18,950 nt of DNA from Candidatus Hermodarchaeum yapensis (GTDB lineage: Archaea; Asgardarchaeota; Hermodarchaeia; Hermodarchaeales; Hermodarchaeaceae): positions 1-18,950 of the forward strand of contig JAEOSK010000043.1 of NCBI GenBank assembly GCA_016840405.1, given 5' to 3'. Positions within the stretch are counted from its first letter, which is position 1. Each line of letters begins with the position of its first letter. Position numbers and translations under genes: made by a program. The notes beneath the pieces are model-generated. The model had not been told where the DNA came from. It made no database searches and saw only the letters and a program-made list of their open reading frames with translations. Below, piece by piece: positions 2-17,970 of this stretch.

Positions 2-424
2 ACTAGGTGTGATGTACAACAAAGCCTCACGTGGACAAAATTGAGCGCACATAGCATAGCCTTCGCACAAATCACATTTGACGGTACGACCGTCTGCGGG
101 ATCAATGTGAATTCCACCAAAGGGGCAGGCCACCAGACATTGATGGCACCCAATGCAATTATCTTGATTGATACACACGGCATTGGTTTCGGCGTCACGA
201 TAGATGGCTTCAGACGGACAACTTTCCATACATAATGGAGTGTCGCAATGCTGACAAATTACTGGAATGTTAATGCCCTGTTTTTCATCCCGAATTATTG
301 AAAGCAAAGCTCTGGCGGGGTTGTATTCGTTGTTATGCCGAAACGAACAGACGAGAGTACAAATCCCGCAACCAGTGCATTTCTCTGGATCAACGACGAG
401 AACTTTATTGCCTGATTTAGTCAT
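2..424 (-). CDS. 4x[4Fe-4S] electron-transfer protein (DmsB/CooF/HydN-like, AOR small-subunit type); 3' end runs off the window
   Basis: Not in the ORF track; translated by hand from ATG at 424: MTKSGNKVLVVDPEKCTGCGICTLVCSF...PVICQHCDTPLCMESCP...NQDNCIGCHQCLVACPFG...KCDLCEGYAMCAQFCPREALLY. Four Cys clusters in the DmsB-family arrangement, open to the window edge. Confidence 0.93.
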   Translation of the reverse strand, partial: MTKSGNKVLVVDPEKCTGCGICTLVCSFRHNNEYNPARALLSIIRDEKQGINIPVICQHCDTPLCMESCPSEAIYRDAETNAVCINQDNCIGCHQCLVACPFGGIHIDPADGRTVKCDLCEGYAMCAQFCPREALLYITPS

Positions 425-520
425 GAGAACCACACGTCCTGAAAAAAAGGGTTATGGAAGGCTTAAAGGGTTACTCGATTACCATAAATCATCAATTTGG
501 AAATCTTGGAGTGCAGAATA
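425..520. promoter_or_regulatory. Divergent promoter region between the Fe-S gene and the ssnA-like gene
   Basis: 96-bp gap between divergent starts, with A-runs and a CTTAAA TATA-like hexamer near 463-468. Exact elements are not resolved. Confidence 0.4.
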
Positions 521-1852
521 ATGCGGACTTTGATTCAAAACGCTATAATCATCACAATGGACCCACAACGCCGCGTACTAACCAATACCGATCTTCTGAT
601 CGAAGATTCAGTCATTGCATCATTTGGTAAGGGGCTCAAGGAAAAAGCTGATCGGGTGATTGACGGAACTGGTCGTATGGTATTGCCGGGTTTCATTTGT
701 GGTCATACGCATCTCTATGGAATCATGCTTCGCGGAGCTCCAATGGATATCAAACCAACAACGGATTTTCTTCAAATTCTTGACCGCATTTGGTGGAAAG
801 TGGATTCAGCCTTTGTAAATGAAGATGCGTACGCGAGTGCGCTCGCATCCTGCTACGAGTTTGTAAAGAGTGGAACAACCTGTTTTGCTGACACCTATTC
901 AGGCCCTGGGTCCGTTGAAGGCGTATTAGATGAAATAGCGAAGGGTGTCACCGAGGTTGGAATTAGAGGTATCCTAGCGTTTGAAGCCACTGAAAGAAAC
1001 TCCAAAGAGGAAGGTGAACGGGGTCTCAAAGAGAACGTCCGATTCCTCAAAAAGCTCCAGAAAAGCCCCCATGACCTTCTTTATGGTATGTATAGCCTTC
1101 ACGCTTCGTTCACCCTCAGTGATGAACTTATCCAAAAGACCCGGGACCAAGCAGATCAACTGCCCGCACCACTCACTATCCACACCAGTGAAGGTCTCAT
1201 CGATGTTTACCACAATATCGAACGATATGACAAACGAACCGTCGAGCGGTTATTTGATCTCGGAATACTGGGTTCTGATGTCGTCCTTGCTCATTGTGTT
1301 CATGTAAACCATGATGAACTTGAACTCATTCGAGGAAGCGGCGCGACTGTTGCCCATAACCCGATGAGTAATATGAACAATGCAGTGGGAGTTGCCCCCA
1401 TCAAAGAAATGTATGAGCACGGAATTTCTGTCTGTTTAGGAAACGATGGATTCATCTTCGACGCCATTGAAAATATCCGTACAGCATATCTCATTCACAA
1501 AGTGCACCACCTTGACACAAGAGTTACAACACCTCAACAAGTCATCGAGATGGCAACAATAAACGGAGCTCAAGCCTATGGCTTGGCAGATAAACTGGGC
1601 TCCATTGAAGCCGGAAAACAGGCCGATCTAGTGATGTTGCATCCTAATCCACGCGTTACCCCGATTCTTCCCGGTGGAGTATATGGATACATTATCTACG
1701 GTTGTACTGCACATGATGTTGAACATGTATTTGTAAACGGGAACCAGGTTGTTGAAGATCACCAGGTAACCTCTGTCAAACAGGAAGACGTTGAAAAAGC
1801 TCTAGACCGTGTTGTTCCAGCTCTATGGAAAAAGCTTGGAATCGATGTTTAA
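521..1852 (+). CDS. ssnA: SsnA-like metal-dependent amidohydrolase
   Basis: PGFICGHTHLYG (HxH), DFLQILDRIWWKVD, EATERN...ENVRF, HASFT, HTSE, HNPMSNMNNAVG and GNDG parallel the E. coli SsnA motifs as recalled (DFISTLKNLWWRLD, ETTDRN..ENIRF, HAPFT, HNARSNMNNHVG). ATG 521 is preferred over the track start 497 because GGAGTG lies at 508-513. The SsnA DHHAS motif reads DTYSG here. Confidence 0.8.
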   Translation: MRTLIQNAIIITMDPQRRVLTNTDLLIEDSVIASFGKGLKEKADRVIDGTGRMVLPGFICGHTHLYGIMLRGAPMDIKPTTDFLQILDRIWWKVDSAFVNEDAYASALASCYEFVKSGTTCFADTYSGPGSVEGVLDEIAKGVTEVGIRGILAFEATERNSKEEGERGLKENVRFLKKLQKSPHDLLYGMYSLHASFTLSDELIQKTRDQADQLPAPLTIHTSEGLIDVYHNIERYDKRTVERLFDLGILGSDVVLAHCVHVNHDELELIRGSGATVAHNPMSNMNNAVGVAPIKEMYEHGISVCLGNDGFIFDAIENIRTAYLIHKVHHLDTRVTTPQQVIEMATINGAQAYGLADKLGSIEAGKQADLVMLHPNPRVTPILPGGVYGYIIYGCTAHDVEHVFVNGNQVVEDHQVTSVKQEDVEKALDRVVPALWKKLGIDV

Positions 1853-1855
1853 TAG

Positions 1856-2149
1856 TCAGAATGAGAAGGTGCCACCAGCTACAGGTGGAAAAATCGCAAT
1901 CACATCTCCATCCGATAGAGGAGTATCAAGTCCCTGTAATACATGAAGCCCGCGACCATTCACAAGGAGCTTGATGTATCGGCGTAGATTTCCTTCTTCA
2001 TCGAATACGGTGTTACAGAAACCCTTTCCGCGTTCTTCGCAGAGTTGAGTTAGTAAGTCCGAAACGGTGCGTCCTTTGAGTGTAATTGTGAGTTGGTGGA
2101 ACCCCAGCGTTTCTGTAAATGGTCCAATGGTTCGGACTACAACATGCAT
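1856..2149 (-). CDS. MoaD/ThiS/SAMP family ubiquitin-like sulfur-carrier or modifier protein with a C-terminal extension
   Basis: About 97 aa beta-grasp pattern: MHVVVRTIG...IKLLVNGR...LDTPLSDGDVIAIFPPVAGG-TFSF*. Start ATG 2149 is chosen because GGAG lies upstream and the length fits the family. Confidence 0.92.
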   Translation of the reverse strand: MHVVVRTIGPFTETLGFHQLTITLKGRTVSDLLTQLCEERGKGFCNTVFDEEGNLRRYIKLLVNGRGLHVLQGLDTPLSDGDVIAIFPPVAGGTFSF

Positions 2150-2268
2150 TATTGATGTGCTCCACACACGTGGATTGCTCATATATTCAAAAAAGTGCTG
2201 GTTTGGCAAAACTTCTCAGAAACCGAATCCTTAAGAGGAAAAGCAGAACAAGCCCTTTGCTGATTCCT

Positions 2269-3660
2269 ATGGCAGACTTGATTATTGACGGAGCCACGGT
2301 CATCACCGTCGACCCGCAGCGTCGTGTTATTGCTGATGGTGCTGTTGTTGTGGAGAACCAACGGATTATTGCCGTTGGAAAATCAAATGAAATCAAGCAG
2401 AAATACAGTGCTGATACGCGTATTCATGCGGAAACTAAGATTCTCATGCCTGGTCTAATTGATTGTCACGTTCACTTGGCTCAGGCGCTTATTCGGGGAA
2501 CGGCTGATGATGTTGATCTCATTCCCTGGCTTCGGGATTATGTCTGGGTTTTGCAGGGAAATTTCACTCCTGATGACGGAAAAGCGAGTGCGGAGCTCTG
2601 TATTGCTGAGATGCTCAAATCGGGCACAACGAGTTTCCTTGAAAGTATGATCCATAAACGGTATGGCATGGACGGTATTGCACAAGTTGTTGAACGAACT
2701 GGAATTCGTGGCTGCCTTTCCAAACTTTTCATGGATTGGACTGGATACGCTGGAGAAGACGCCATAATGTATGAGGGAATGATTGAGGATGGCGAGGAAT
2801 GTATCTCTGAAACTCTAGCAATGCACAAGAAATGGCAAGGAGCCGCAGATGGACGCGTCTACATATGGTGGGGCGCTCGAACACCTGGAGCTGTAAGCCC
2901 GGAGTTGTATCGACGAGTCGCAGACCTTGCTAGAAAACGTCATATGCGGATTACAATGCATCTGGGAGAAGTGAAAGAAGATGTTGAATATACCACTTCC
3001 CAGTTCAACCAGTTACCAGCAGAATTCGCTCGTGATGTTGGAATGATGGGAGAGAACGTGGTGCTTGTTCACGGAGTTTGGATTAGCCCCAAGGAATACC
3101 CTATTTTCACAGATACCGGAACTCACATGTGCCATTGTCCAGCTAGCAACTCGAAACTAGCCTCAGGCATTGCAAAGATTCCCGAAATGCTACAAGCCGG
3201 AATTAACGTGTGTCTTGGCTGTGATGGAGGTCCAAGTAACAACGCCTATGACATGTTTCGTGAGATGTATCTTGCTGCTATTATCCACAAAGCACGTACT
3301 CTTGACCCCCTCATAATGCCTGCAGAAACCGTGTTAGAGATGGCGACAATCAACGGGGCTAAAGCCTTAGGTCTGGAGCGAGAGATAGGGAGTATAGAGG
3401 CTGGTAAAAAGGCTGACTTAATTCTTGTCGACACACGACAACTAAACTTAGCCCCGACCTATAATCCGGTGAGTAATATCATCTATACTGCAAATGGTTT
3501 CAACGTCTACACAACGATTGTCAATGGCCAAATCCTTGTCCATGAGGGGAAGTTGTTAACATTAGATGAAGACCAAGTCATTGAGAATGCCCATAAACGG
3601 GGTGAAAAGCTGCTCGATCGAACAGGTGTCAATATTCAGAGTAGATGGCAAAGAAATTAA
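2269..3660 (+). CDS. Amidohydrolase of the TRZ/ATZ/MtaD family, probable purine/heterocycle deaminase
   Basis: MPGLIDCHVHLAQ (HxH..Q), EMLKSGTT, MHLGE (catalytic Glu), VHGV, HCPASNSKLASG, LGCDGGPSNN, GSIEAGKKAD. Family similarity begins at ATG 2269; the track start 2119 would overlap the MoaD gene. Confidence 0.9.
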   Translation: MADLIIDGATVITVDPQRRVIADGAVVVENQRIIAVGKSNEIKQKYSADTRIHAETKILMPGLIDCHVHLAQALIRGTADDVDLIPWLRDYVWVLQGNFTPDDGKASAELCIAEMLKSGTTSFLESMIHKRYGMDGIAQVVERTGIRGCLSKLFMDWTGYAGEDAIMYEGMIEDGEECISETLAMHKKWQGAADGRVYIWWGARTPGAVSPELYRRVADLARKRHMRITMHLGEVKEDVEYTTSQFNQLPAEFARDVGMMGENVVLVHGVWISPKEYPIFTDTGTHMCHCPASNSKLASGIAKIPEMLQAGINVCLGCDGGPSNNAYDMFREMYLAAIIHKARTLDPLIMPAETVLEMATINGAKALGLEREIGSIEAGKKADLILVDTRQLNLAPTYNPVSNIIYTANGFNVYTTIVNGQILVHEGKLLTLDEDQVIENAHKRGEKLLDRTGVNIQSRWQRN

Positions 3661-3690
3661 AAGCGCCATAAGCTCTTAACGCAAATAATT

Positions 3691-3696
3691 GAGGTG
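3691..3696 (+). promoter_or_regulatory. Shine-Dalgarno GAGGTG of the first carbamoyltransferase
   Basis: GAGGTG lies 9 nt upstream of ATG 3706. Confidence 0.6.
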
Positions 3697-3705
3697 TCTC
3701 TAGAT

Positions 3706-4767
3706 ATGAGTGCAAATATTGTTGGAAAATATCGTGGTCGCGACTGGTTGACAATCCAAGATTGGTCACAAGAAGAGCTGCAAACGCTCATCGATGCGGC
3801 AATGAAAATTAAGAAATTACAAAAAGAGCGAAAACCTCACGATTATCTTCTACGACAAACATTGTTCATGATTTTTTTCAATCGGTCCCTTAGAACTCGA
3901 AATTCCTTCGAGGCAGGAATGACCCAGATGGGAGGACATGCCCACTTCCTATCGCCTCAAGACGTTTACCGACCAGCATTACCCGACGATGAAGAGGCAT
4001 ACACCAGTGAAAGAATTTCCGATGTTGCTCGTGTACTAGCCCGTATGGGTGATGCAGTTGCGATTCGAATCTACGGATCACATGCCAGGTGGATTTATGG
4101 ACGAGGTCACAGAGTTCTTCGCGAATTTGCCAAATGGTCCGATATCCCTATCATCAACATGGAAGATGACGTATATCATCCGTGTCAAGCGATGGCAGAT
4201 ATGCAAGCGATTCAAGAGGTTTCACCTAAAGTACAGGGGAAAAAGTTCGTAATGAGCTGGGCGTATAGTCCGAGCATGAAAAAACCCCTTGCAGTCCCAC
4301 AGAGTGGTGTTCTAATGGGTACGAAGTGGGGTATGGATACAGTGTTAGCGCATCCGAAGGGCTTTGAGCTTGATCCCAAGATAATTGAAATGTGTGAGAA
4401 GAATGTAGCAGATTATGGGGGATCCTTTGAAGTCACTAATGATATGGAGGAAGCGTTTTCTGGTGCGCATTATGTGTATCCTAAGTGTTGGACGAGTAAA
4501 CATCATATCCCACCCATCGCGCCCACTGAGGACTGGGAGGGCTGTCAAAAATTATTTGACGCAAATAAGGACTGGATTGCTGACGAAAAAAAGATGGACT
4601 TAGGCGCTAAAGATGTCAAGTATATGCACTGTCTACCCGCAGACAGAGGGTTTGAAGTAACAGATGAAGTGCTAGATGGGAAGTGGAGCATTGCATTCGA
4701 CGAGGCCGAAAACAGACTTCACACCCAGAAGGCCATCATGGCGGCTGTAATGGGATACCCGGAGTAG
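3706..4767 (+). CDS. Carbamoyltransferase of the N-acetylornithine (AOTC)/YgeW knotted type; substrate uncertain
   Basis: FFNRSLRTRNSF, HPCQAMAD, HCLP and AENRLH motifs. SWAYSPSMKKPLAVPQS resembles the YgeW loop TWAYSPSYGKPLSVPQG, and there is an extended 80s loop like AOTC. SD GAGGTG at 3691-3696 precedes ATG 3706. Confidence 0.9.
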   Translation: MSANIVGKYRGRDWLTIQDWSQEELQTLIDAAMKIKKLQKERKPHDYLLRQTLFMIFFNRSLRTRNSFEAGMTQMGGHAHFLSPQDVYRPALPDDEEAYTSERISDVARVLARMGDAVAIRIYGSHARWIYGRGHRVLREFAKWSDIPIINMEDDVYHPCQAMADMQAIQEVSPKVQGKKFVMSWAYSPSMKKPLAVPQSGVLMGTKWGMDTVLAHPKGFELDPKIIEMCEKNVADYGGSFEVTNDMEEAFSGAHYVYPKCWTSKHHIPPIAPTEDWEGCQKLFDANKDWIADEKKMDLGAKDVKYMHCLPADRGFEVTDEVLDGKWSIAFDEAENRLHTQKAIMAAVMGYPE

Positions 4768-4768
4768 T

Positions 4769-5788
4769 TCAAAGTAGATTCCCATCGCTCATTACCAGCG
4801 AGAGAAGACCTTTCTGAAGATGTAAGCGGTTTTCAGCCTGATCGAAGATAACACTTTGGGGACTATCCACAACTTCGTCTGTGGCTTCCTCCCCACGAAA
4901 GACAGGGAGACAATGCATGTAAATTGCATCTTTACTTGCTAAATCCATTAGCTCAGAGTTACAGATCCAGTTTTGATATTGTTCATGCAGTTGTGCTTCC
5001 CTGTCTTCACCCCATTTATCGATGCCCATTGCAGAACATTCAGCGCTCATCCATGAACGGGGATAGACGACATGGGCTCCTGAGTACCCTTCTTTGATGT
5101 CGTTCGTAATGGAAAACGCACCCCCAGATTCATTGGCGTTTTGGCTGCACCAGCCCATGATTTCAGGGTCAAGTTCGAATCCAGGAGGATGCGCAAGGGT
5201 CACATCCATACCAAAACGTGTTGCAGTAAGAATAGCGCTTTGTACACTGCACCAAGACCTTGAATGGCGACTGTAAGCCCATGAAAATAGGAATTTCTTT
5301 CCTTGGATTTTCGGGAAGTTTTCTTGAACGGTCATGAGATCCGTTAGTGATTGACAAGGATGGAATTTGTCATCAGCCATGTTGATGATGGGAATATTCG
5401 CCCACTTGGCATACTCACGAAGAACCTGGTTTCCACGTCCATAAACATAACCAACCGCTTTTTCGAGGATACGGATTCCGATGCCATGCCCGTACCGGGC
5501 TAGCGTATTGGCAGTGTCTTTAACACTCTCTCCTTCCCCAAGACGCATGGCACCGGGTTCAAGAAATTGAGCGTGCCCCCCTAACTCAGTTAGAGCTGTT
5601 TCAAAACTGGCACGAGTACGTGTGCTTGTATTGTAAAATAACATGAAAAAGGTCTTATCGGGCAATAGATGAGAGGTTTTGCCGGCTTTTGTCTTTTTCT
5701 TCAGATCCTTTGAGAATTTGAGGATTGCTTCGAGTTCTTCTCGGGTCCACTCTTGAGTTGTAATCATGTCTTTGCCACGAAGATCCAT
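4769..5788 (-). CDS. Second carbamoyltransferase (ornithine carbamoyltransferase superfamily, YgeW/AOTC-related); substrate uncertain
   Basis: FYNTSTRTRASF, HPCQSLTD, FSWAYSRH, TRFGMDVTLAHP, YPRSW, HCLP, AENRLH. It lacks the GDGNN and DxxxSMG motifs of canonical ArgF. Confidence 0.9.
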   Translation of the reverse strand: MDLRGKDMITTQEWTREELEAILKFSKDLKKKTKAGKTSHLLPDKTFFMLFYNTSTRTRASFETALTELGGHAQFLEPGAMRLGEGESVKDTANTLARYGHGIGIRILEKAVGYVYGRGNQVLREYAKWANIPIINMADDKFHPCQSLTDLMTVQENFPKIQGKKFLFSWAYSRHSRSWCSVQSAILTATRFGMDVTLAHPPGFELDPEIMGWCSQNANESGGAFSITNDIKEGYSGAHVVYPRSWMSAECSAMGIDKWGEDREAQLHEQYQNWICNSELMDLASKDAIYMHCLPVFRGEEATDEVVDSPQSVIFDQAENRLHLQKGLLSLVMSDGNLL

Positions 5789-5880
5789 TTTAATCAGCTA
5801 CAGATTCTTGTTGTGTGGATGCGGTAGAGCTAAAACCTTTTGAAGCTTTCGAGAGGACGCTATCGCGAAGGGATTCCACT

Positions 5881-6651
5881 GTGAGGTTTTTCGATACCCA
5901 TTCACACTTGGAGATGTCTCGACTTTACCCAAAGGCTGAAGCCATCGTTCGTCGCGCTCGCGAGGCAGGAGTTATTGGAGTCGTAGTGAGTGCTGTTGAG
6001 CCAAAGTATTACCCTAAGGCATTGGATTTACAGAAACGATTTTCAGGATTTATTTGGCCCACCTTTGGTTTACATCCTCCAAGAGCGACACCTCAGATGG
6101 TCAAACGGGCTATTGGTGCCATCTACGATTATGCAGAGGATATTGTCGCAATTGGTGAAGTTGGTTTGGATTACTATTGGGTGAAAGGCGCCAAGGAGCG
6201 AGAATATCAAAAGAGCGTGTTTATTGAATTCATTCACCTTGCTGATGAATTGAATTTACCGTTAGTTGTGCACTCGCGAGAGGCAGAGGCTGATGCGATG
6301 CAGATTTTACGGGAAGAGAAGATGTTTGATGTCCAGCTGCATTGTTTTAATGATCCTGAACATGTTCAGCAGGCGGCAGAAGAACGGTTCTTCATGAGCG
6401 TTCCCACTAGTGTTGTTTCGCGTCAACGAATGCAACGTATAGCCAAGGCGATGCCTTTGGAAAACATGCTTCTGGAAACTGATGCGCCATATTTATCTCC
6501 TGTTCCTGGACAGACAAATGAGCCGTCAAATCTTCCACTTGCTGCGGCTAAAATTGCTGAACTCAAGGGTTCAACAACTGAAGTGATTGCTAGTACTACA
6601 ACTACAAATGCTCTGAATTTCTTACATCTACAACATGCGTACCAGGAATAA
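5881..6651 (+). CDS. tatD: TatD family deoxyribonuclease/hydrolase
   Basis: DTHSH, GLHP, AIGEVGLDYY, LPLVVHSREA, LHCF, LLETDAPYL, NEP. Family similarity starts at GTG 5881, so the track start 5815 is probably too long. Confidence 0.93.
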   Translation: MRFFDTHSHLEMSRLYPKAEAIVRRAREAGVIGVVVSAVEPKYYPKALDLQKRFSGFIWPTFGLHPPRATPQMVKRAIGAIYDYAEDIVAIGEVGLDYYWVKGAKEREYQKSVFIEFIHLADELNLPLVVHSREAEADAMQILREEKMFDVQLHCFNDPEHVQQAAEERFFMSVPTSVVSRQRMQRIAKAMPLENMLLETDAPYLSPVPGQTNEPSNLPLAAAKIAELKGSTTEVIASTTTTNALNFLHLQHAYQE

Positions 6652-6670
6652 GGGAGAAAGATAAATCACT

Positions 6671-8497
6671 TCATCGAACTGTTAGGGTTTTACTGATATT
6701 CCGGGGATAATCTGGGTCAATGTTCTTGTATGTTGCAAGGTGGTAGGCGATGAGTTGGAGTGGGATTACCTGGAGTATTGGGCTTAGGTATTGACTTGAC
6801 TTGGGTACTACAAGGAAGTCTTCTTCTCTCACATATCGTCTTAGTAATGGATGGTCATCGCCAGTAGCAATGATGCGAGCACCACGGCACTCAACTTCGG
6901 CTAAGTGGTTAACGATATGTTCAGCATCATCAGGTGCTATTGTGAAAATGATGGGATATCCGTTTTCGACGATACTTAATGGACCATGTTTGAATTCGCT
7001 AGAATACATGCCATCAGCAACGATATAGCAGACTTCTTTGATTTTCAACGCGCCTTCTAAGGCTACACCATGGGTTAATCCATGCCCAAGGACGTAAAAG
7101 TGAGAGAATTTGGAGAGATAGGGAGCGAGGGTTCGTGCTTTTAGGGTCGTGGTGGAGATGGTTTCCTCAATTAGTGCTGGGAGGCGTGTTTGTAGGTCAT
7201 TGATTAGAGCATCTGCTGCCTTTGGTTTAATGGCCTCTGATTTTTGCCCAGCCAATGTCGCAAGAAAAGCGAAAAGTGTAACTTGGCTTGTGTAGGTTTT
7301 TGTTGCTGGGACGCTAATTTCAAAACCGGAACCCATGGGGAGGTAAAGGTCACTTAGATGCGTGAGCGTCGATCCGAGAACATTTACTATACTTAATATT
7401 TTGACATTTTTCTTTTTACAGAGGTGGACAACATCGATGACATCTTTGGTTTCGCCACTTTGACTTACACAAATCACCACATCGCCATTCCCCACAGAGT
7501 CTCCGTAAAGAGAATTAAATTGTCCACCGATGACCGGGATTGCTGCAATATTAGCCAAGTCGTTGAAATAATAACTCCCAACTACTGTTGCATGATAGCT
7601 GGAACCACAGGCAACGAAAAAGACACGTTTTGCATCGATTAGGGCGTCAATGAATTGAGTGATATATGGTTCCCGGATGGCGCTGAAGAGTGTTCGCGTG
7701 GTACTGACTTGTTCATGAATTTCTTTAAGCATGAAATGAGGATATCCACCTTTTTGGGCTACTCGGATATCTGCATCTGATGTGTAAGGGTTCCGTTCAA
7801 TAGGATGACCATCACTTATTCGCCTTATTTCGACTTTTTCGGGTGAGAGGATTACCAGTTCTCCGTCGTGTATATTTAGAATCTGACGGGTTACGGGTAA
7901 TATACTGGGAAGGTCACTGCTAACACACGTCTCACCTTCACCAATTCCCACAAACAGGCTGGAGCCCATTTTGACAGCATACACTTTGTTGTCATCTTTG
8001 TGCATTGCAGCAAAGGCGTAATCGCCCTTAAGGTCACCACAGCCCTTCCGGATGGCTTCCACCATGTCGCCAAGTTGATCATAATATTTCTCGACGGCAT
8101 GGACGCAGATTTCACCATCATTCATACTTCGAACGGTATGTCCTTCCTTGGTGTATTGTTCTCGTAGGGGAAGAAAATTCACGATATTGCCATTATGGGC
8201 CGCACACAGATCCTCATCGCAATCGAGATGGGGTTGGGCATTCAGTTTGCTTGGAGCTCCAAAAGTTGCCCAACGAAGTTGTGCTATGCCTTTGGATCCT
8301 CGCATTTCATTTAGGCGAAGTTTGACAGCGACTTCATCAAATTTACCCTTGTCTTTTCGAAGGTGAATTCGGTCTTGGGAGACTGTGGCAACACCCACAG
8401 TGTCGTAGCCACGGTAGGTGAGTTTTTCGGCACATTCGACGAGTATTTTGCCGATGTCATTTCGTCGATTGCTTGTGATTGCGAAGATGCCGCACAC
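6671..8497 (-). CDS. glmS: Glutamine:fructose-6-phosphate amidotransferase (GlmS) family, divergent
   Basis: N-terminal MCGI (Ntn Cys), YRGYD, RWAT, HNGNIVN, HFMLKEIHEQ, ACGSS, SQSGET, EGALKIKE, EFKHGP, PRNISKTLTV; 608 aa GATase + 2xSIS architecture; GTG start. Confidence 0.9.
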   Translation of the reverse strand: MCGIFAITSNRRNDIGKILVECAEKLTYRGYDTVGVATVSQDRIHLRKDKGKFDEVAVKLRLNEMRGSKGIAQLRWATFGAPSKLNAQPHLDCDEDLCAAHNGNIVNFLPLREQYTKEGHTVRSMNDGEICVHAVEKYYDQLGDMVEAIRKGCGDLKGDYAFAAMHKDDNKVYAVKMGSSLFVGIGEGETCVSSDLPSILPVTRQILNIHDGELVILSPEKVEIRRISDGHPIERNPYTSDADIRVAQKGGYPHFMLKEIHEQVSTTRTLFSAIREPYITQFIDALIDAKRVFFVACGSSYHATVVGSYYFNDLANIAAIPVIGGQFNSLYGDSVGNGDVVICVSQSGETKDVIDVVHLCKKKNVKILSIVNVLGSTLTHLSDLYLPMGSGFEISVPATKTYTSQVTLFAFLATLAGQKSEAIKPKAADALINDLQTRLPALIEETISTTTLKARTLAPYLSKFSHFYVLGHGLTHGVALEGALKIKEVCYIVADGMYSSEFKHGPLSIVENGYPIIFTIAPDDAEHIVNHLAEVECRGARIIATGDDHPLLRRYVREEDFLVVPKSSQYLSPILQVIPLQLIAYHLATYKNIDPDYPRNISKTLTVR

Positions 8498-8569
8498 AGG
8501 TAGTCGCTCCTTTTAGCAGGTTTCACACGGTGGAGGCTTTTAACTGTGTTTCTGTATTTCAGCACATAG

Positions 8570-9832
8570 TCATTTTTGGAGGTCAAGTGCTGCCTGCAGT
8601 TGGGCTAAATCAGGATCAATTACGGGTGGTGCCGATATCCGTTCAATAACGATGTCTTGGTCCTTCAATCCGCCGCCAGTCGCCTCAATGAGAATAGTTT
8701 CTGACGGGTCTTGAGCTCCAGATTCTAGTTGATCGATTAAGCCTGCAAGACCGGTAACTCCGGTGGGTTCCGCGAAGATACCCTCGTATTTAGCGAGTAG
8801 GTCCTGAGCTTTGAGAATTGACTCATCGGACACAGCTATTGCTGTGCCTTTTGATTCGCGAACAGCAGTTAGGGCAAGGTCTCCGTCCCATGGAAAAGGG
8901 TCGCAGAGTCCTTCTGCAACGCTTTTTGGAGATTCGCAGGGTGTAATCTTGAAGGGATCTTGATTGGTTTCAAAGGCTCTGACAAGTGGTGGACAACCTG
9001 TAGCTTGAACAGCAAGCATGCGGGGGCGCTGTTTCACTAGGTCGAGAGTCAAGAAATCTGTAAAACCACGCCATTGTCCACCTAGCAGGCCTCCTGCGCC
9101 AACTTGGACGTAAGCAACATCGGGAACGGTCCAATCTAGCTGCTGGATAATTTCATAAGCGAGGGTCTTTGGTCCTTCGGCTTGATAGGGATTAAAGGGT
9201 CCAAAACTGGGACAGGGTGTCCAACCGTATGTGGCACACGCTTCTCGGAGAAGTTTAACAGTAGGATCATCTCCTTTATGCAGACCACGTAACCGTACTA
9301 CTTTGGCGCCATATAGAATGAGTTGGGCGATTTTGCCCATTGGGGCGATATCTGGGACAAAACAAAAACAGGTAAACCCAGCGCGTGCACAATAAGCTGC
9401 TAATGCAGCGGCGGCATTACCACTGCTTGCAGAGGCTAATGTATCTGTACCTTGTTCTTTTGCTTTTGAAACGCCAACTGTCATTGGTCGGTCTTTAAAC
9501 GACCAAGTTGGATTCCGCGTTTCGTCTTTAATATACAGTTCGCGAACGCCCAAGACTTTTGCTAGCCTTTCACTTCGAAGAAGAGGCGTCCCTCCTTCTC
9601 CCAAACTGACAATGTTTTTGCGATTGGAAACGGGAAGTAATTCGAAATAGCTCCATACACTCAATGGTCGTTTTGATAGTATCTTTTTAGAGAGAACTTC
9701 TTGGAGGTTAGAATAGTTGTAAAACACATCAATTCGGGCATTACAGTTGGGAGTTGTGCAAAGTAGCGGATATTTGGATAAATCATATTCTGTATTACAC
9801 TTTGAGCATTTGAGATGAGAGACATAAGCCAT
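8570..9832 (-). CDS. thrC: Threonine synthase-like PLP enzyme (fold type II) with N-terminal Zn-ribbon
   Basis: CxxC...CxxxxC N-terminus, SLGEGGTPL, KDETRNPTWSFKDR (PLP lysine), ASSGN, EGIFAEP, TGGGLKD. The family call is firm; true ThrC activity is doubtful (see findings). Confidence 0.8.
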   Translation of the reverse strand: MAYVSHLKCSKCNTEYDLSKYPLLCTTPNCNARIDVFYNYSNLQEVLSKKILSKRPLSVWSYFELLPVSNRKNIVSLGEGGTPLLRSERLAKVLGVRELYIKDETRNPTWSFKDRPMTVGVSKAKEQGTDTLASASSGNAAAALAAYCARAGFTCFCFVPDIAPMGKIAQLILYGAKVVRLRGLHKGDDPTVKLLREACATYGWTPCPSFGPFNPYQAEGPKTLAYEIIQQLDWTVPDVAYVQVGAGGLLGGQWRGFTDFLTLDLVKQRPRMLAVQATGCPPLVRAFETNQDPFKITPCESPKSVAEGLCDPFPWDGDLALTAVRESKGTAIAVSDESILKAQDLLAKYEGIFAEPTGVTGLAGLIDQLESGAQDPSETILIEATGGGLKDQDIVIERISAPPVIDPDLAQLQAALDLQK

Positions 9833-10548
9833 TATTGAGGAGCCTCCTGTTGGATATGATGTTGTAAAGTGGCAAGCCCCTTGTCAATTATTGTATACCG
9901 TTTGGCTTGTCCCATTAAGTATTCGTACAGGGTTATGTAATCGGAATGGCTGCGAAGGGTTGTTTTGGTATCCAAATCGTCAATTGGTGATAAAGCCTGT
10001 TGTTTAACTGCTTTCCGAAGGGCTAGAGCCACTCGGTAGCCATCTTCACGGCGAATTTGAGATTGTTGTTTCGCCGAAAGCGTTTGACGTAACTCGCTAA
10101 GTCGAGAACTAATAGAAGAAGAATCTTCTATGAGGGCAAGAGAGGCTGTGAAAAGAAAAATACTACCAAAGAGTTCCTTTTCCCACCAATGCAAGGGCGT
10201 TTGTGTTGCGATAAGTTCTAAGGCAGTATTTAGACTGCCCTGGCTCGCCTCAAGCTTTTGCAACATAAAGAAGAGATCACTCGCTTCTAAGAGAAGGCCC
10301 GCAGCCCGGGTTGGTTGGTGTTTACGCCAAAAAAATTCACCTGCGACAAGCACAACAATCAGGGCGTTTTGAAATTTATTTTGTGCTCTGAGCTCATCGG
10401 CTTCTTGTAGATACTGACCTAATTTGACCTTGGCTATTTCAGGACTAGGTGATGTCATTAATCCTGTAAGACGGAGTTCTGATTCAGAGAACACCTTCTC
10501 TTGTTGAGCATTAATCGCTTGATACAGATCACGCCACTGGCTTTTCAG
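9832..10548 (-). CDS. Hypothetical all-alpha-helical protein, possibly TPR-like
   Basis: 220 aa ORF from GTG 10494, extendable in frame to CTG 10548 behind a GAGGTG SD. Its TAA overlaps the thrC-like ATG (TAATG), implying translational coupling. Ala/Leu-rich amphipathic helices. Confidence 0.7.
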   Translation of the reverse strand: MKSQWRDLYQAINAQQEKVFSESELRLTGLMTSPSPEIAKVKLGQYLQEADELRAQNKFQNALIVVLVAGEFFWRKHQPTRAAGLLLEASDLFFMLQKLEASQGSLNTALELIATQTPLHWWEKELFGSIFLFTASLALIEDSSSISSRLSELRQTLSAKQQSQIRREDGYRVALALRKAVKQQALSPIDDLDTKTTLRSHSDYITLYEYLMGQAKRYTIIDKGLATLQHHIQQEAPQ

Positions 10549-10710: not shown

Positions 10711-13700
10711 GTGGTTTCCAAGCGGTCTGTATTTGCAGCCATATCCCTAGTCATCATTTTATTGCTGATTCTTAGTTTTTTTTGGCCACTCCTTTTCCAG
10801 CCACTTATCCCTCGTCAAGAACCCTATGACGACATCCGTGACTGGGGAACCGGAGTTATAGTCGAAGGAGGAGATGACACCTTCTTGGATAACATCACAA
10901 TGGATGACGTCACTTTGGATTTAAACTGGACCCTCGATCCCTCCTTGACTGTCGCCGTTGTTTCACCTGGTGATCCACCCCGATATTGGCGAACCACGGC
11001 ATATGATCGATACATCGGAACAGATTGGGAGAAAAGTAATAGCACAACTGAGTTGCTCCCAACGGTTGATCCTGGTATTGAAACCGTTTACCACATTACC
11101 CAGAACATTTCTGTTCAGGGAGTCGCTGGATCCTTTCCTTTGTTGGCTCTTTGGCCAGATCCGATGATTATTACTGACTCTATTCTGTGTCCTACTCTTC
11201 CCTACCCGACTTCGTATGATATTGCCACAGATGAATATGGCACTGCCATTTTGAATGGTCGATTCAGTGCGACTGGTTCAACCACTCTGGAGTACGATGT
11301 TACCTTTACTCCGCTCAATTGGTCTACTGATATTCGACCCGACGCTCGGTCAGCCAGTTTTACTCCAGCTGACATAAGAGCAGATTATCAGCAACAAGGT
11401 CTTAGTTATCTTAGCCCACCCACGATTAGCGATGTTCAAACACGACTAAGTACAATTCTAGCTGGAGTCCCTGACAACGCCTTTGAAGAAGCATTTGCCA
11501 TCCTCAACTATTTCAAGACAACATTTGCCTTTGACTTCTTAACACCCCGACCTGGACTCAGTGATGAGCATGTAGAATGGTTTCTGAGTCAAGGTTCAGG
11601 TATTGGCGTTGACTTTGCCACAGCTTACACCATGTTTCTTCGTCAAAGTGGAATTGCGGCGCGACCTGTCTTTGGAGCAGTGCTGGGTGAAGACCAGGGA
11701 TTTCAGAGAGTGTTGCATCTGATGCATCTTCACTTTTGGGTTGAAGTGTACATTCCCGTTGTGGGTGGAGGAGGCTATTGGGTGCAATTTGATCCAACGC
11801 CTCTACCTGATTTTATCACTGATGGAAGCCCACCTACGACTCCAGGTGTCAACAAAGCACCTCCTCCTGTTATTCCGGATGGGGATCCTTATGTTATCAG
11901 CACCTCATATGACCTCTCAGTGGTCGTTACACCACCTGTAGTTGACCGATTTGTGACAGTTCAAATCTCTGCAACGCTAACTCAAGATGGAAACCCAGCA
12001 CCGGGGGAAACTCTTGACTTCTATGATGAAACGGAGCTATTCTTTCTAGGAAGTAACGTGACCACCGCAACAGGTGAAGCGAGTATTAGCTTTCAGTATA
12101 GTAATGGTGCAATCATTGGATTTCACATTCTACGCGTTTCATTTCAATCTCTAAGCGAGTATGGAGGAGTAGGTCTTCATGGGGCTGCAAACCTGAATCT
12201 TACCGTGACTCCTCTGGAAGTGAATCGCACGATGATTGTACGTTTCAATGGTACCCTAAGTGATGCTGTAAATGGTCGTGGGATATCTTCCTCTGAAACT
12301 GTACTGACAGGGGTCAATATATTTCTAGGATCTACGATAGTGTCACAGCCTCTCACCGATGCGTCTGGGTACTATTCTGTTGATTATGCTATCCCCATGT
12401 CTCAGGCACCACTTGGTGTCACAAGCGTTCATGCAGAATTTGAAATCGTCGGCGTTATTAATTTTGTAATTAGTAATTGGGAGAATCTGAATATCACTGC
12501 TACCTCACAACTTTCGGTTCAGGCTCTACCCAACTCAATCCGTTTGAATAGTTCCACGATTTTACGTGGGAGATTACAGTTTGAAAACGGAACAGGAATT
12601 CCAGGGCAAACTATCCAACTCTATTGGAATGGTACACCTATTGGTTCGAATATTACGGATAGCACAGGGTATTACTATTTTAACTATACACCTCCTGCTG
12701 TCGGTCCTGTTGTAATTAGAGCGCAATTCAGTGGAGCGCCGTTGATTTATAGTTCCAGCGGGTTAAACACGGCTCGTGTGCATCAGGAAGGCACGATAAT
12801 TGTTTATGTGGACGACGATGATGGTGATGGTGTCACCCAAAGAGAAAACTGGGTGTATTTCTCAGGTTGGGTAGAATATCAAAATGGTACACGTGTAGAA
12901 GCGGGAGTACCGGTGATCATTTTTCTTAATCAAACTGCCATTGTTGGTCCGTCCACAAACGCGAGTGGCGGTTTTTCGTGGAGCTATCAGCTGATAGATA
13001 CATTACCAGTTGGCATAATTGAGGTGTCAGCTAACATCACTCATCCGACACTACGCGTTGTGAGTAGTCTTGATTACTTTATAATTAATTCGACAACCCA
13101 GCTCCAAAATCTCCAGTTTGATTTTGACCCTGTGATGCTGGGTGAAACGGTAACTCTTACTGGTCAGATTATTGATGATCAAGGGACTGGACTTTCAGGT
13201 CAAAGTCTAGATATTAGCCTTTCATACCTGTCGACGACTATACCCATTGGATCAGCACTTACTCAGCCAGGTGGAACTTTTTCTGTAATCTATCAGATTC
13301 CGCTTACCGTTCCAACTAGTGTTTCAACCGTAACTTTTGATGTGACCTACTCCGGAACCATGTACTATGGAGCTAGTATCGATTCAGAGCTCTTGGATGT
13401 GTTTTCAAATGCTTCCCTTCTGATTGAGGTTCCCGTGGGTCCTTTTGCTTGGAATGAGAGTATTTCGTTGAATGGAACGCTCGTTGACAACTTTGGGCGG
13501 GCGCTTCCTAACCGAGATGCACAGGTGTTTGTGAATGGAACCAGTACTTTTGCAAGCAGTACAAATCAATTAGGACAGGTCGCGTTCGTGCTTCGCTTCA
13601 CCCCATCGGGAGAAAATGATGTTTTTTATGCTCTCCAGCTTCGACACGAAACGATAATTACCCTCAATTCGTCTGTTAGAATAATAACCGTGGAGGCCCA

Positions 13701-14229
13701 AGATATCATGCAACCCCCACCACCCTTACTAATTCCACCAGAGTGGATTGCAGCTATAATCGTAGTTGTTGTCATCATCGTAATAGTGATTCTCGTCTAC
13801 CGATACTGGAAACGCCGTCCTCGACAACCTGCGGCACCATCTATTGATGCTTCAGCGATGTTGACAGCACTTCGCCAACTACTTTCTCAACAAAAATATC
13901 GTGAAGCCATAATCTATGCCTTTCGAATGTATGAGACAATAATTCAAGCCAAGCTTGGAATTTTCCGAGATCCAAGTATTACTGTCCGGGAGTTTGCTAA
14001 CCTAACAGTTGCGCATGGACGCCTGGATACACGAACGATGGAAGTCTTCATTCGGGGTGTAGAAGAGGCGCGATACAGTGACCACCCCATAAGTTACAAT
14101 ACAGCCCTTTCATCACTGAACGCTTTTGCTAGTTTGTATAATTCCTTAACCGGAGGCAATTTGCGGTTTGTCACGCAGGAACAACAACAGCCAGAATCAG
14201 CAGAGCCCGAGCGGACCGAAACCGGCTGA
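10711..14229 (+). CDS. Large membrane-anchored transglutaminase-like (TgpA-type) protein with Ig-like repeats and C-terminal DUF4129-like domain
   Basis: N-terminal hydrophobic segment; RYWRTTAYDRY.G.DW; TGase core (DFATAYTMFLRQSGIAARPVFG, HFWVEVY, WVQFDPTP); about 6 beta-rich repeats; TM WIAAIIVVVVIIVIVILVY followed by RYWKRR; REAIIYAF...SITVREF...EEARYS (DUF4129-like). Confidence 0.88.
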   Translation: MVSKRSVFAAISLVIILLLILSFFWPLLFQPLIPRQEPYDDIRDWGTGVIVEGGDDTFLDNITMDDVTLDLNWTLDPSLTVAVVSPGDPPRYWRTTAYDRYIGTDWEKSNSTTELLPTVDPGIETVYHITQNISVQGVAGSFPLLALWPDPMIITDSILCPTLPYPTSYDIATDEYGTAILNGRFSATGSTTLEYDVTFTPLNWSTDIRPDARSASFTPADIRADYQQQGLSYLSPPTISDVQTRLSTILAGVPDNAFEEAFAILNYFKTTFAFDFLTPRPGLSDEHVEWFLSQGSGIGVDFATAYTMFLRQSGIAARPVFGAVLGEDQGFQRVLHLMHLHFWVEVYIPVVGGGGYWVQFDPTPLPDFITDGSPPTTPGVNKAPPPVIPDGDPYVISTSYDLSVVVTPPVVDRFVTVQISATLTQDGNPAPGETLDFYDETELFFLGSNVTTATGEASISFQYSNGAIIGFHILRVSFQSLSEYGGVGLHGAANLNLTVTPLEVNRTMIVRFNGTLSDAVNGRGISSSETVLTGVNIFLGSTIVSQPLTDASGYYSVDYAIPMSQAPLGVTSVHAEFEIVGVINFVISNWENLNITATSQLSVQALPNSIRLNSSTILRGRLQFENGTGIPGQTIQLYWNGTPIGSNITDSTGYYYFNYTPPAVGPVVIRAQFSGAPLIYSSSGLNTARVHQEGTIIVYVDDDDGDGVTQRENWVYFSGWVEYQNGTRVEAGVPVIIFLNQTAIVGPSTNASGGFSWSYQLIDTLPVGIIEVSANITHPTLRVVSSLDYFIINSTTQLQNLQFDFDPVMLGETVTLTGQIIDDQGTGLSGQSLDISLSYLSTTIPIGSALTQPGGTFSVIYQIPLTVPTSVSTVTFDVTYSGTMYYGASIDSELLDVFSNASLLIEVPVGPFAWNESISLNGTLVDNFGRALPNRDAQVFVNGTSTFASSTNQLGQVAFVLRFTPSGENDVFYALQLRHETIITLNSSVRIITVEAQDIMQPPPPLLIPPEWIAAIIVVVVIIVIVILVYRYWKRRPRQPAAPSIDASAMLTALRQLLSQQKYREAIIYAFRMYETIIQAKLGIFRDPSITVREFANLTVAHGRLDTRTMEVFIRGVEEARYSDHPISYNTALSSLNAFASLYNSLTGGNLRFVTQEQQQPESAEPERTETG
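11908..13698 (+). repeat. About six degenerate Ig-like (Big-type) protein repeats of roughly 95-105 aa
   Basis: Recurring pattern (G/A)xLxD..GxG(I/L)xGxx(I/V)x(I/L)...T(D/N)xxGxF/Y, e.g. TTATGEAS, TDASGYYS, TDSTGYYY, TNASGGFS, TQPGGTFS, TNQLGQVA. Visible at protein level only. Confidence 0.7.
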
Positions 14230-15634: not shown

Positions 15635-15641
15635 TTTAATA

Positions 15642-16613
15642 ATGAGCAGAAGAAGAAGACGTGGAGATGGAATGTCCATCGCAGAAGTGCGAACCCATGC
15701 CTCAGCAATTTTGGATGAGGTGGGTAAGCTTATCGTTGGCAAAAGGATTACTCTCCAGAATATACTGATTGGACTACTCGCGGAAGGACATATTCTCTTG
15801 GAGGGTGTGCCGGGTATAGCGAAGACCTACATGGCAAATGCCTTTGCGGCATCGATTGGTTGTGAATTTAAACGAATACAATTCACACCCGATATGCTTC
15901 CTGCGGATATTATTGGAACGAATATCTATGATCCAAATACTGGTGAATTTCGATTACGAAAAGGTCCGGTGTTTTCCAATCTCGTGTTAGCAGACGAAGT
16001 GAATCGATCTCCACCAAAGACGCAATCAGCACTTCTTGAAGCCATGCAAGAAAAGCAGGTTACTATTGAGGGATCAACCCTGCCCCTACCAGCGCCATTC
16101 ATGGTGCTGGCTACACAAAATCCCATTGAACTTGAAGGAACCTATCCCCTTCCCGAAGCTCAAGTGGATCGATTTCTATTCAAACTTCATGTTGATTATC
16201 CCTCTGAAGCAGAAGAAGTGGAAATTCTTCGTCGAAAACACCAACCAGAAGAAGCAGAAATCGGAGCTGTTGTCGACCCACCAACGCTACTTCAAATGCA
16301 GGCGACTACAAAACGTGTTTTCATCGAGCCATATATCATGTCCTATATTCGGGATATTGTTGTCCGCACTCGAAATGACCCCCAAATCTTGGTGGGTGGC
16401 TCCCCGCGGGCATCGATTGTATTACTAGAAACGGCAAAGGTTCATGCAGCCTTTAGTGGACGGGACTATGTTACACCTGATGATGTGAAAGCTCTTGCCA
16501 ACCATGCTTTGAACCACCGGTTAATTCTCAAACCTGAAGCGGAACTGGAAGGCACTTCGGTTAATGCGGTAATTGATCGGATTCTTAAACAGATAAGCGC
16601 ACCTGGAGCGTAA
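15642..16613 (+). CDS. moxR: MoxR family AAA+ ATPase
   Basis: [14 protein letters not shown] (Walker A), [69 protein letters not shown]. Start is ATG 15642 or ATG 15672. Confidence 0.96.
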
Positions 16614-16619
16614 TTATTC

Positions 16620-17942: not shown

Positions 17943-17970
17943 ATGAAGGTGATGAGGAGATGAATTCCAG

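Follow-up and report, generated by a model that had tools for sequence, protein, structure and literature searches.

The oxygen-free purine degradation pathway of gut bacteria was solved in 2025, and according to a published commentary it is confined to bacteria. It leads from urate via 2,8-dioxopurine and 2,3-diureidopropionate to pyruvate, with the enzymes in the order XdhD/XdhAC, YgfK (UacX in C. difficile), SsnA, HyuA, YgeW together with YqeA, YgeY and YgeX (bioRxiv 10.1101/2025.04.24.650524; PMC12507026; PMC12990295). The C. difficile enzyme UacX, a PF01180 flavoprotein, is a 2,8-dioxopurine reductase (PMC12507026). SsnA neighbourhoods were shown in these papers for bacteria only, with any PF00185 neighbour coloured "YgeW", and the word "archaea" is absent from PMC12507026. 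Here we describe a locus in Candidatus Hermodarchaeum yapensis, an Asgard archaeon, in which an SsnA-like amidohydrolase gene lies beside twin carbamoyltransferase genes and a tungsten-type oxidoreductase unit. Positions 2-5788 of the window and the end of contig C18 next to them, perhaps with 8570-9832 as well, probably encode the core of a reductive (2,8-dioxopurine-type) purine degradation pathway in an archaeal form.

The window, by which we mean the whole stretch analysed, is the entire 18,950-nt contig JAEOSK010000043.1 (C50), one of the 77 contigs of a 2.7-Mb metagenome-assembled genome (MAG; G000) that is 86% complete and 4.4% contaminated. MAGs deposited as Candidatus Hermodarchaeota/Promethearchaeota contain close relatives of its genes, and the archaeal housekeeping genes found on other contigs are consistent with this affiliation. 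Genes were called from the open reading frame (ORF) listing and from hidden Markov model (HMM) scans with Pfam and NCBIfam (Table 1). A preliminary description of this DNA had listed, within 10 kb, an SsnA-like and a second, deaminase-like amidohydrolase, two carbamoyltransferases of the YgeW or N-acetylornithine carbamoyltransferase (AOTC) type, a 4x[4Fe-4S] protein, a MoaD-type sulfur carrier and a fold-type-II pyridoxal phosphate (PLP) enzyme. It had proposed an archaeal, re-wired purine/ureide pathway with non-orthologous replacements. The HMM scans recovered every listed gene at its position, and the proposal is now supported by comparative genomics, at the level of genes and not of biochemistry. 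The gene coordinates bore out that the strands alternate, so that the genes do not form one operon.

The two carbamoyltransferases are termed here CTaseA (3694-4767, plus strand; clade A) and CTaseB (4769-5788, minus strand; clade B). Their presence and their AOTC likeness were upheld: the AOTC structure 3kzc was the best PDB match of both (~230 bits), and both keep the SxRTR and HPCQ motifs and have, as AOTC does, an insertion following the RI(R/L) strand. Neither is an ortholog of YgeW, to which they are 31% identical; the YgeW models (TIGR03316/NF005538) gave 144-165 bits against cut-offs of 453-500, including 148 for CTaseA and 165 for CTaseB against 453. The AOTC model NF003384 was passed marginally by CTaseA (290 versus 288) and missed by CTaseB (278), which also fell short of an ornithine carbamoyltransferase (OTC) model (280 against 306). 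Both scored below the cut-off of 281 on the OTC model TIGR00658 (CTaseA 242, CTaseB 272), and the DxxxSMG ornithine loop is absent in both. CTaseA contains SLRTR, HPCQ, the YgeW-like SWAYSPSxxKPLAVPQ and HCLPAD, the last being HCLP(A/C)D across clade A; a serine aligns with Glu92 of AOTC. The 80s loop is 9 residues longer in clade A and of OTC length in CTaseB. Clade B is marked by W(A/G)xxxxRSW(C/S)SVQ and Y(P/S)RxWMS, and HCLP is intact in the CTaseB of the window and degenerate in many other members.

A maximum likelihood tree of 28 sequences placed each protein of the window in a clade with its bacterial operon partners (support 100/99 for clade A and 97/97 for clade B). E. coli YgeW, on a long branch of its own, and a carbamoyltransferase from another Asgard genome (G021) fall outside both. 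Asgard proteins positive for the AOTC model (383 and 320 bits) form a separate clade (100/97), the G024 member of which adjoins LysX-LysZ-LysK. All of these groups are split from canonical OTC (99/97). Grouping with arginine-biosynthetic enzymes, the outcome that would have contradicted the preliminary description, was thus not observed: clades A and B lie apart from the AOTC proxies, and the canonical OTC of this genome is encoded on C20 (7989-8933; TIGR00658 424 bits), with PyrB on C28. Because that OTC exists, the pair of the window is additional to it. CTaseB was also considered as a LysW-ornithine/AOTC-type arginine enzyme on account of the 50%-identical G024 gene after LysX-LysZ-LysK; this was rejected, the G024 protein belonging to the AOTC clade and not to clade B. 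Judged from model scores and tree, CTaseA and CTaseB are neither YgeW nor canonical OTC and represent two old sister clades.

The pair is maintained in all 14 genomes of the genus and at 13 of 20 Thorarchaeota loci. More widely, clades A and B co-occur in Asgard archaea, in Nitrososphaeria/Bathyarchaeia and in numerous anaerobic bacteria, in most cases alongside carbamate kinase, and CTaseB orthologues directly adjoin the carbamate kinase gene in Asgard family f19 and in bacteria. Homologues 54-66% identical to CTaseA are found in Bathyarchaeia, Caldarchaeum, Nitrososphaeria, Caldisericota, Eisenbacteria, Chloroflexi, Thermotogae, Bipolaricaulota and others. As a separate observation, the Thorarchaeota CTaseA gene is divergent from a gene of ~860 aa of the penicillin amidase family (Ntn hydrolase) at 15 of 20 loci (L068-L087), with an SBP_bac_5 ABC transporter near.

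Bacterial operons tie these clades to purine genes. On a 945-kb bacterial contig (L099), a single co-directional operon begins with a HyuA-like hydantoinase, the molybdenum subunit of xanthine dehydrogenase (XDH), PreT and PreA. It continues with a bona fide SsnA (566 against 444 on NF005540; 540 on TIGR03314, likewise passed), a CysK-like PLP enzyme, CTaseA (57%), CTaseB (47%) and a carbamate kinase (57% identical to the kinase on C12 of our genome), and ends with a ThrC-like gene (42% to that of the window), the XDH Fe-S subunit (Fer2), Xan_ur_permease, MocA and the XDH FAD subunit. Eisenbacteria-type contigs carry XdhC, the XDH FAD subunit, clades A and B, carbamate kinase, adenine deaminase, a major facilitator (MFS) transporter and a Bmp ABC importer. 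Chloroflexi combine an ortholog of the second amidohydrolase (DadD-like; 54%) with a bona fide adenine deaminase (514 against 472), CTaseA, CTaseB and carbamate kinase. Among archaea, one Nitrososphaeria contig encodes a dihydroorotase-like amidohydrolase, SsnA-like (51%), DadD-like (59%), a phosphoribosyltransferase, a Bmp ABC importer and CTaseA, followed by Fe-S, two aldehyde:ferredoxin oxidoreductase (AOR) family genes, ThiS, Fe-S, PreA-like and a further AOR.

The DNA to the left of the window was inspected, and an AOR gene and a PreA/UacX-like reductase gene directly adjoin it. The final 112 nt of contig C18 (28835-28946) are 94% identical to positions 2-113 of the window, inside the polyferredoxin gene, and the break between the two contigs was probably caused by strain variation. 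C18 is the true left neighbour, because in each of five genomes of the genus one contig carries the uninterrupted order AOR, Fe-S, SsnA-like, SAMP, DadD-like, CTaseA, CTaseB, TatD, GlmS, ThrC, unknown, transglutaminase. C18 completes the Fe-S gene and continues with a 645-aa AOR (AFOR_N and AFOR_C; AOR-1), a 395-aa protein with DHO_dh and 2x[4Fe-4S] domains (PreA-like; best model PreA, NF006183, 195 bits) and a 106-aa ThiS/MoaD-like gene, a second copy in addition to the MoaD gene of the window. The full polyferredoxin is ~168 aa, AorA-like and the first gene of the operon Fe-S/AOR/PreA-like/ThiS-like. The PreA-like gene (PF01180 plus 2x[4Fe-4S]) lies three genes left of the SsnA-like gene and shares only 29% identity with the L099 PreA. 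The 4x[4Fe-4S] and MoaD genes of the preliminary description are present and their assignment is corrected here: they belong to the AOR unit, transcribed divergently from the SsnA-like gene. The MoaD/SAMP1 gene exceeds both cut-offs (TIGR01687, MoaD_arch, 64.4 against 49.5; NF041918, SAMP1, 62.1 against 60), and ThiS-like genes accompany AOR units in the Asgard genomes G043 and G399, in Thorarchaeota and in Nitrososphaeria. Partial NCBIfam matches had suggested that the truncated Fe-S protein was AegA/YgfT- or PadI-like; this was rejected, since relatives possess a polyferredoxin of 165-168 aa followed by AOR.

In a tree of the nine AORs of this genome together with cluster-linked AORs, the latter make up one clade (95% SH-aLRT) with three orthologous subclades, each supported at 100% SH-aLRT. 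This clade leaves out the six other AOR paralogues of the genome, which has one AOR in each subclade (C18:26817, C14:91162 and C8:6698). AOR-1 aligned over its full length with the structures 1aor (P. furiosus, 411 bits) and 8c0z (Aromatoleum, 383 bits). Just left of the AOR unit, C18:21912-24476 carries a series of genes for Asgard-typical small GTPases (Arf/Ras-like) and Roadblock/LC7 proteins, with SMC and ScpA further left; we record these genes as neighbours.

Of the two amidohydrolases, which are the only TRZ/ATZ members in this genome, the SsnA-like protein has SsnA as its best family, 86 bits above the next (NCBIfam). It is 30% identical to E. coli SsnA over the full length, against 22% for its neighbouring paralogue, the DadD-like protein. 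By these values SsnA is its nearest characterised relative among TRZ/ATZ enzymes. Candidates for the partners expected of an SsnA, a ring reductase and ureide-cleaving enzymes, are close by: the PreA-like gene and both carbamoyltransferase genes lie within 5 kb. In a Nitrososphaeria MAG, as in G043 and G399, its orthologues adjoin AOR or PreA-like genes. The DadD-like protein keeps the HxH and HxxE motifs and matched 5'-deoxyadenosine deaminase best, below cut-off (NF005557, Table 1; NF012037, 255 against 779). The listed ORF start of its gene (2119) is probably too early, and ATG 2269 is preferred. Orthologues with 52-59% identity occur in Nitrososphaeria and in Chloroflexi, in the latter with adenine deaminase, CTaseA, CTaseB and carbamate kinase, and at 8 of 10 Thorarchaeota loci beside the AOR/PreA unit.

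Conservation of the neighbourhood, which the preliminary description had made a test of its proposal, was found both close by and at a distance. Gene order is kept in 14 of 14 genus genomes (the SsnA-like ortholog itself in 13), and subsets of the genes re-associate in distant Asgard families, one Nitrososphaeria MAG and bacteria. The phyletic profile covered 400 Asgard genomes, whose kinship reduces the evidence to ~5 lineages, not hundreds; an identity of at least 53% defined a CTaseA ortholog. CTaseA occurs in the window genus (14/14), f5, Thorarchaeota (~59/89), f19 (16/22) and f33, and SsnA-like in the window genus (13/14), f5 (1/1), Thorarchaeota (~70/89), f19 (17/22) and f33 (1/1). Thus no family or genus with CTaseA lacks SsnA-like, and SsnA-like also occurs without CTaseA in f14, f17 and f30 (single genomes each) and in some Thorarchaeota genera. 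PreA-like is present in all CTaseA-holding families except f19 (0/22). CTaseA, SsnA-like and PreA-like are all absent from the sister genus (0/4), f4 (0/31), f13 (0/12), f21 (0/12) and f27 (0/14), and the sole trace in the largest family, f9, was one weak carbamoyltransferase match (44% identity, 1/135).

Gene order differs between these lineages while the same families regroup. Loci of f19 have carbamate kinase directly beside the clade-B carbamoyltransferase, CTaseA a few kb off and SsnA-like 1-11 kb from CTaseA; at two of them SsnA-like is directly beside a ThrC-like gene. G043 has the order AOR, Fe-S/SsnA-like, DadD-like, PreA-like, Fe-S, SAMP, AOR, Fe-S, AOR, and elsewhere CTaseB followed by a ThrC-like gene. 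G399 has PreA-like/SsnA-like ... DadD-like ... SAMP, Fe-S, AOR, and on another contig Fe-S, AOR ... ThrC-like, one further gene, CTaseA. Eight of ten Thorarchaeota loci read DadD-like, [600 aa]/Fe-S, AOR, PreA-like/... SAMP, cyclic amidohydrolase, Fe-S, AOR. The Fe-S/AOR/PreA-like/ThiS unit recurs beside SsnA-like and DadD-like in four Asgard families and a Nitrososphaeria MAG, and the association exceeds genus-level synteny.

We also noted a cluster of bacterial type in another Asgard family (L027; G021:C27:135000-154999). This urate cluster contains MocA/YgfJ, a selenium-dependent XDH (TIGR03311 890 against 830), carbamate kinase, an ORF for a C-terminal XDH fragment and YgeY (631 against 321). 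Its carbamoyltransferase is the 321-aa OTC-like G021 protein outside clades A and B. A hydantoinase-like gene follows 7 kb further, separated from the urate genes by a TnpB/Cas12f-like gene and a BREX/MADS-type methyltransferase gene.

The preliminary description had expected further pathway genes elsewhere in the genome, and some were located. A carbamate kinase is encoded at C12:5708-6733 (TIGR00746 381 against 358; 47-48% identical to YqeA). Within C12:5708-7748 it is divergent from a Ser/Thr-dehydratase-like PLP gene (threo-3-hydroxy-L-aspartate ammonia-lyase model, 419 against 452), a pairing kept within the genus and not in the sister genus. An amidohydrolase of the dihydropyrimidinase/hydantoinase family (TIGR02033 495 against 393) lies in a reductive pyrimidine cluster (C45:26353-35422) with an M20 peptidase, a CN-hydrolase and PreT-like and PreA-like genes; an adenine-deaminase homologue is located on C34 and a Bmp-type nucleoside ABC importer on C27. 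Others were missing from this 86%-complete genome: no match to the molybdenum-type XDH domain (PF02738), no YgeW ortholog, and nothing above cut-off for YgfK (291 against 835), YgeY (111 against 321), YgeX/DpaL (42 against 532) or Xan_ur_permease. Within the limits of 86% completeness, these negatives exclude a direct copy of the bacterial cluster.

The fold-type-II PLP enzyme of the window is present as described; it is ThrC-like and not YgeX-like, and its membership of the pathway is uncertain. Orthologues (42-56% identical) adjoin SsnA-like (f19), CTaseB (G043), CTaseA (G399) and carbamate kinase/CTaseB (L099), and this genome possesses a ThrC paralogue at C14:54764-56248 that is also above cut-off. 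The protein is a possible last-step enzyme of the pathway, or may simply be the threonine synthase of the cell. The PLP gene of a Caldisericia operon (489 aa) is distantly CysK-like and not ThrC-like; therefore, the PLP partner is not one orthologous family. The dehydratase-like gene on C12 is a possible stand-in for YgeX. On C65 (87453-92588) we observed a CysK-like PLP gene 69% identical to that of L099, flanked by URO-D/MtaA-like, corrinoid-protein-like and MttB-like genes, names that were read from N-terminal sequence and not from HMM matches.

The evidence in hand consists of homology, repeated co-localisation and the orthology of A and B with genes in bacterial purine operons, and from it we infer each of the following steps. 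Purine nucleosides or bases would be imported by the Bmp-type ABC importer (C27) and deaminated by the adenine deaminase (C34), by the DadD-like enzyme (proposed to be an aminopurine deaminase or a second ring hydrolase) or by both. The ring would then be reduced by the PreA/UacX-like FMN/Fe-S flavoprotein (C18), which may receive electrons via the polyferredoxin from, or cooperate with, a specialised tungsten enzyme of the AOR family. SsnA-like would open the six-membered ring of the reduced purine, and a cyclic amidohydrolase, either the C45 dihydropyrimidinase/hydantoinase or DadD-like, the hydantoin. Of the two ureido groups, CTaseA and CTaseB would phosphorolyse one apiece to carbamoyl phosphate, from which the carbamate kinase (C12) would form ATP; YgeY thus appears to have been replaced by a second carbamoyltransferase. 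Finally, the diamino acid would be removed by a fold-type-II PLP enzyme, namely the ThrC-like protein or the dehydratase-like protein encoded beside carbamate kinase. A purine is favoured over a pyrimidine because two carbamoyltransferases match two ureido groups, of which a pyrimidine yields one.

One extension of this proposal we consider possible but rather doubtful: that the three conserved, cluster-specific AOR subclades do not act here as aldehyde oxidoreductases but are ferredoxin-linked purine-ring hydroxylases or dehydroxylases that replace the molybdenum XDH family (XdhA/XdhD) and are wired via polyferredoxins to the PreA-like reductase. Asgard and other sediment archaea would then carry out a tungsten-based purine fermentation yielding two ATP per purine through the twin carbamoyltransferases.

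Several observations weigh against assignment to purine degradation. The SsnA-like protein falls below both curated cut-offs (NF005540, Table 1; TIGR03314, IPR017700, 356 against 455), and its 30% identity to E. coli SsnA lies under the threshold of 33% identity to C. sporogenes SsnA used by Liu et al. Thorarchaeota encode it more than 10 kb from the other pathway genes in a conserved four-gene operon of unrelated appearance (in order, a ~331-aa protein without a clear family, a ~475-aa protein with a weak HEAT match, SsnA-like and Amidohydro_2, with a DUF362 Fe-S protein nearby); its neighbours at 20 Thorarchaeota loci (L048-L067) showed no link to other pathway genes. The ThrC-like protein passes threonine-synthase cut-offs (NF006050, Table 1; TIGR00260 201 against 167), and in most genomes of the genus it is the sole ThrC. 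AOR-1 may merely oxidise aldehydes, because it is nearest to ordinary aldehyde:ferredoxin oxidoreductases (9mqx, 457 bits; 1aor); the AOR may likewise only supply electrons. The AOR is at most a candidate XDH analogue, which leaves C6 dehydroxylation as a weak step of the proposal. To these are added the alternating strands, the location of carbamate kinase, hydantoinase and transporter on other contigs, and the incompleteness and contamination of the MAG.

Three other explanations were weighed against this evidence. The strongest, which we nevertheless regard as unlikely, accepts a genuine module and assigns it another substrate, such as a pyrimidine (uracil or orotate), a hydantoin or an allantoin-type compound, with the AOR oxidising a downstream aldehyde and returning electrons to the PreA-like protein. 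Such a role would suit the resemblance of AOR-1 to ordinary aldehyde oxidoreductases and the fold of the PreA-like protein, that of dihydroorotate and dihydropyrimidine dehydrogenases as indicated by its NF006183 match. CTaseA lies beside pyrBI/pyrC/pyrD in the Asgard genomes G091 and G097, with a reductive pyrimidine cluster adjoining it too in G091, and Bmp importers and Xan_ur permeases carry pyrimidines too. However, the C45 cluster, with PreT/PreA, dihydropyrimidinase and CN-hydrolase, already provides a separate and complete-looking reductive pyrimidine pathway; the carbamoyltransferases are conserved as a pair despite the single ureido group of a pyrimidine; and the orthologous bacterial operons hold XDH, adenine deaminase and bona fide SsnA.

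We consider it improbable that the genes share no pathway and are housekeeping neighbours, namely a DadD-like salvage deaminase, AOTC-type arginine enzymes, a threonine synthase and an AOR for amino-acid-derived aldehydes. Individual annotations do point this way: DadD-like matches the 5'-deoxyadenosine deaminase HMM best and has a methylthioadenosine/S-adenosylhomocysteine (MTA/SAH) deaminase (4f0r) as its top PDB match, CTaseA barely exceeds the AOTC model and its homologues are labelled AOTC by PGAP, ThrC is over cut-off, and TatD and GlmS are interspersed among genes on alternating strands. Against this, a canonical OTC is encoded elsewhere in the genome, and the true AOTC-type Asgard proteins beside LysX-LysZ-LysK constitute a separate clade. 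Furthermore, the same families regroup in varied orders across two domains with carbamate kinase, XDH, adenine deaminase and purine or nucleoside transporters, and the sister genus does without the whole set.

A route resembling the arginine or agmatine deiminase pathways, in which the TRZ/ATZ amidohydrolases deiminate guanidino compounds to ureido compounds and the carbamoyltransferases and carbamate kinase yield ATP, is highly improbable: it shares the carbamoyltransferase and carbamate kinase logic of those pathways, the amidohydrolase family includes an acyclic formimino deiminase (HutF matches in the HMM scan) and CTaseA keeps the HCLP motif of ornithine and putrescine enzymes, yet it leaves the conserved PreA-like protein, AORs, XDH, hydantoinase, adenine deaminase and nucleoside transporters unexplained, and the TRZ/ATZ amidohydrolase family is not known to include a guanidino deiminase.

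The remaining genes of the window are included in Table 1. TatD and GlmS, which the preliminary description did not mention, sit between the carbamoyltransferases and the PLP gene and are bystanders. The 220-aa ORF has one base in common with the start of the ThrC-like gene, and its position is kept genus-wide at 55-60% identity. The right half of the window, with genes for a 1172-aa transglutaminase-like/Ig-domain protein, DUF4350, a MoxR AAA+ ATPase, a DUF58/VWA protein and a 326-aa open ORF, is a Bat/MoxR-type module with no relation to the purine genes.

Table 1. Features of the 18,950-nt window, with the matches or remarks on which each name is based (score against model cut-off, in bits).
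Feature	Position	Strand	Basis and remarks
4x[4Fe-4S] polyferredoxin, N-terminal 144 aa	2-433	-	Pfam Fer4 families; runs off contig end
SsnA-like amidohydrolase	521-1852	+	NF005540 379 < 444; ORF opens 497, likely ATG 521
MoaD/SAMP1/ThiS-type beta-grasp protein	1856-2149	-	ORF to 2209, likely ATG 2149; TIGR01687, NF041918
DadD-like TRZ/ATZ amidohydrolase, 463 aa	2269-3660	+	NF005557 423 < 522
CTaseA carbamoyltransferase	3694-4767	+	OTCace_N and OTCace; AOTC model 290 vs 288
CTaseB carbamoyltransferase	4769-5788	-	all models below cut-off; convergent with CTaseA
TatD	5815-6651	+	HMM scan
GlmS	6671-8497	-	HMM scan
ThrC-like fold-type-II PLP enzyme	8570-9832	-	NF006050 337 > 303
220-aa protein	9832-10494	-	no Pfam/NCBIfam match
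Transglutaminase/DUF4350/MoxR/DUF58 cluster	10711-18948	+	co-directional

We found no paper that connects purine degradation with AOR or tungsten, none on Asgard carbamate kinase together with carbamoyltransferase, and none describing an archaeal variant. Read from gene content, the locus most likely represents an unpublished archaeal version of the gut-bacterial route solved in 2025, with tungsten-type enzymes where bacteria have a molybdenum enzyme. If so, purines from dead sediment biomass could be fermented by Asgard archaea (Hermodarchaeota, Thorarchaeota and others), by Bathyarchaeia/Nitrososphaeria and by a wide range of uncultured anaerobic bacteria. The ATP yield would be higher, since carbamoyl phosphate would be obtained from both ureido groups. 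A function would be assigned to two large carbamoyltransferase families that are at present auto-annotated as "N-acetylornithine carbamoyltransferase", the tungsten AOR family would include a candidate for a new class of reaction that can be tested, and purines would suggest themselves as a substrate for Asgard enrichments.

Comparison with characterised proteins places the parts of the locus as follows. CTaseA and CTaseB share with AOTC (Xanthomonas campestris, 3kzc) and with the knotted SOTC/YgeW (3q98) the 120s insertion, the lack of an SMG loop and the STRTR-type and HPxQ motifs; they differ from AOTC in their separate clades, in the residue at Glu92 (Ser in CTaseA), in the absence of an arginine-gene context and in the presence of a canonical OTC in the genome. 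The AOR resembles AorABC in being preceded by a 4x[4Fe-4S] subunit and in having a MoaD-like gene near, whereas the position of the third subunit is taken by the PreA-like FMN/Fe-S protein and not by an FAD/NAD subunit. Unlike other AORs, the cluster AORs fall into dedicated subclades tied to amidohydrolases and carbamoyltransferases. Orthologues of the second amidohydrolase sit in purine-catabolic operons and not in the salvage contexts of DadD and MTA/SAH deaminases.

At the level of pathways, the UacX/UacY variant of C. difficile places a dearomatising reductase of the DHO_dh family next to SsnA; the candidate counterpart here is the DHO_dh plus 2x[4Fe-4S] protein. The variant differs in that UacY hydrolyses a ureido group with no ATP gain, whereas two carbamoyltransferases are retained here. 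With the pathway of E. coli and C. sporogenes the proposed route would share its whole logic, namely ring reduction, SsnA-type opening, a cyclic amidohydrolase, phosphorolysis by an OTCace-family enzyme with carbamate kinase, and a PLP-dependent end step. It would depart from that pathway in its archaeal host, in the AOR, polyferredoxin and PreA-like protein that take the place of XdhD/YgfM/YgfK, and in the two carbamoyltransferases of new clades that appear to stand in for YgeW (with YqeA) and the hydrolase YgeY.

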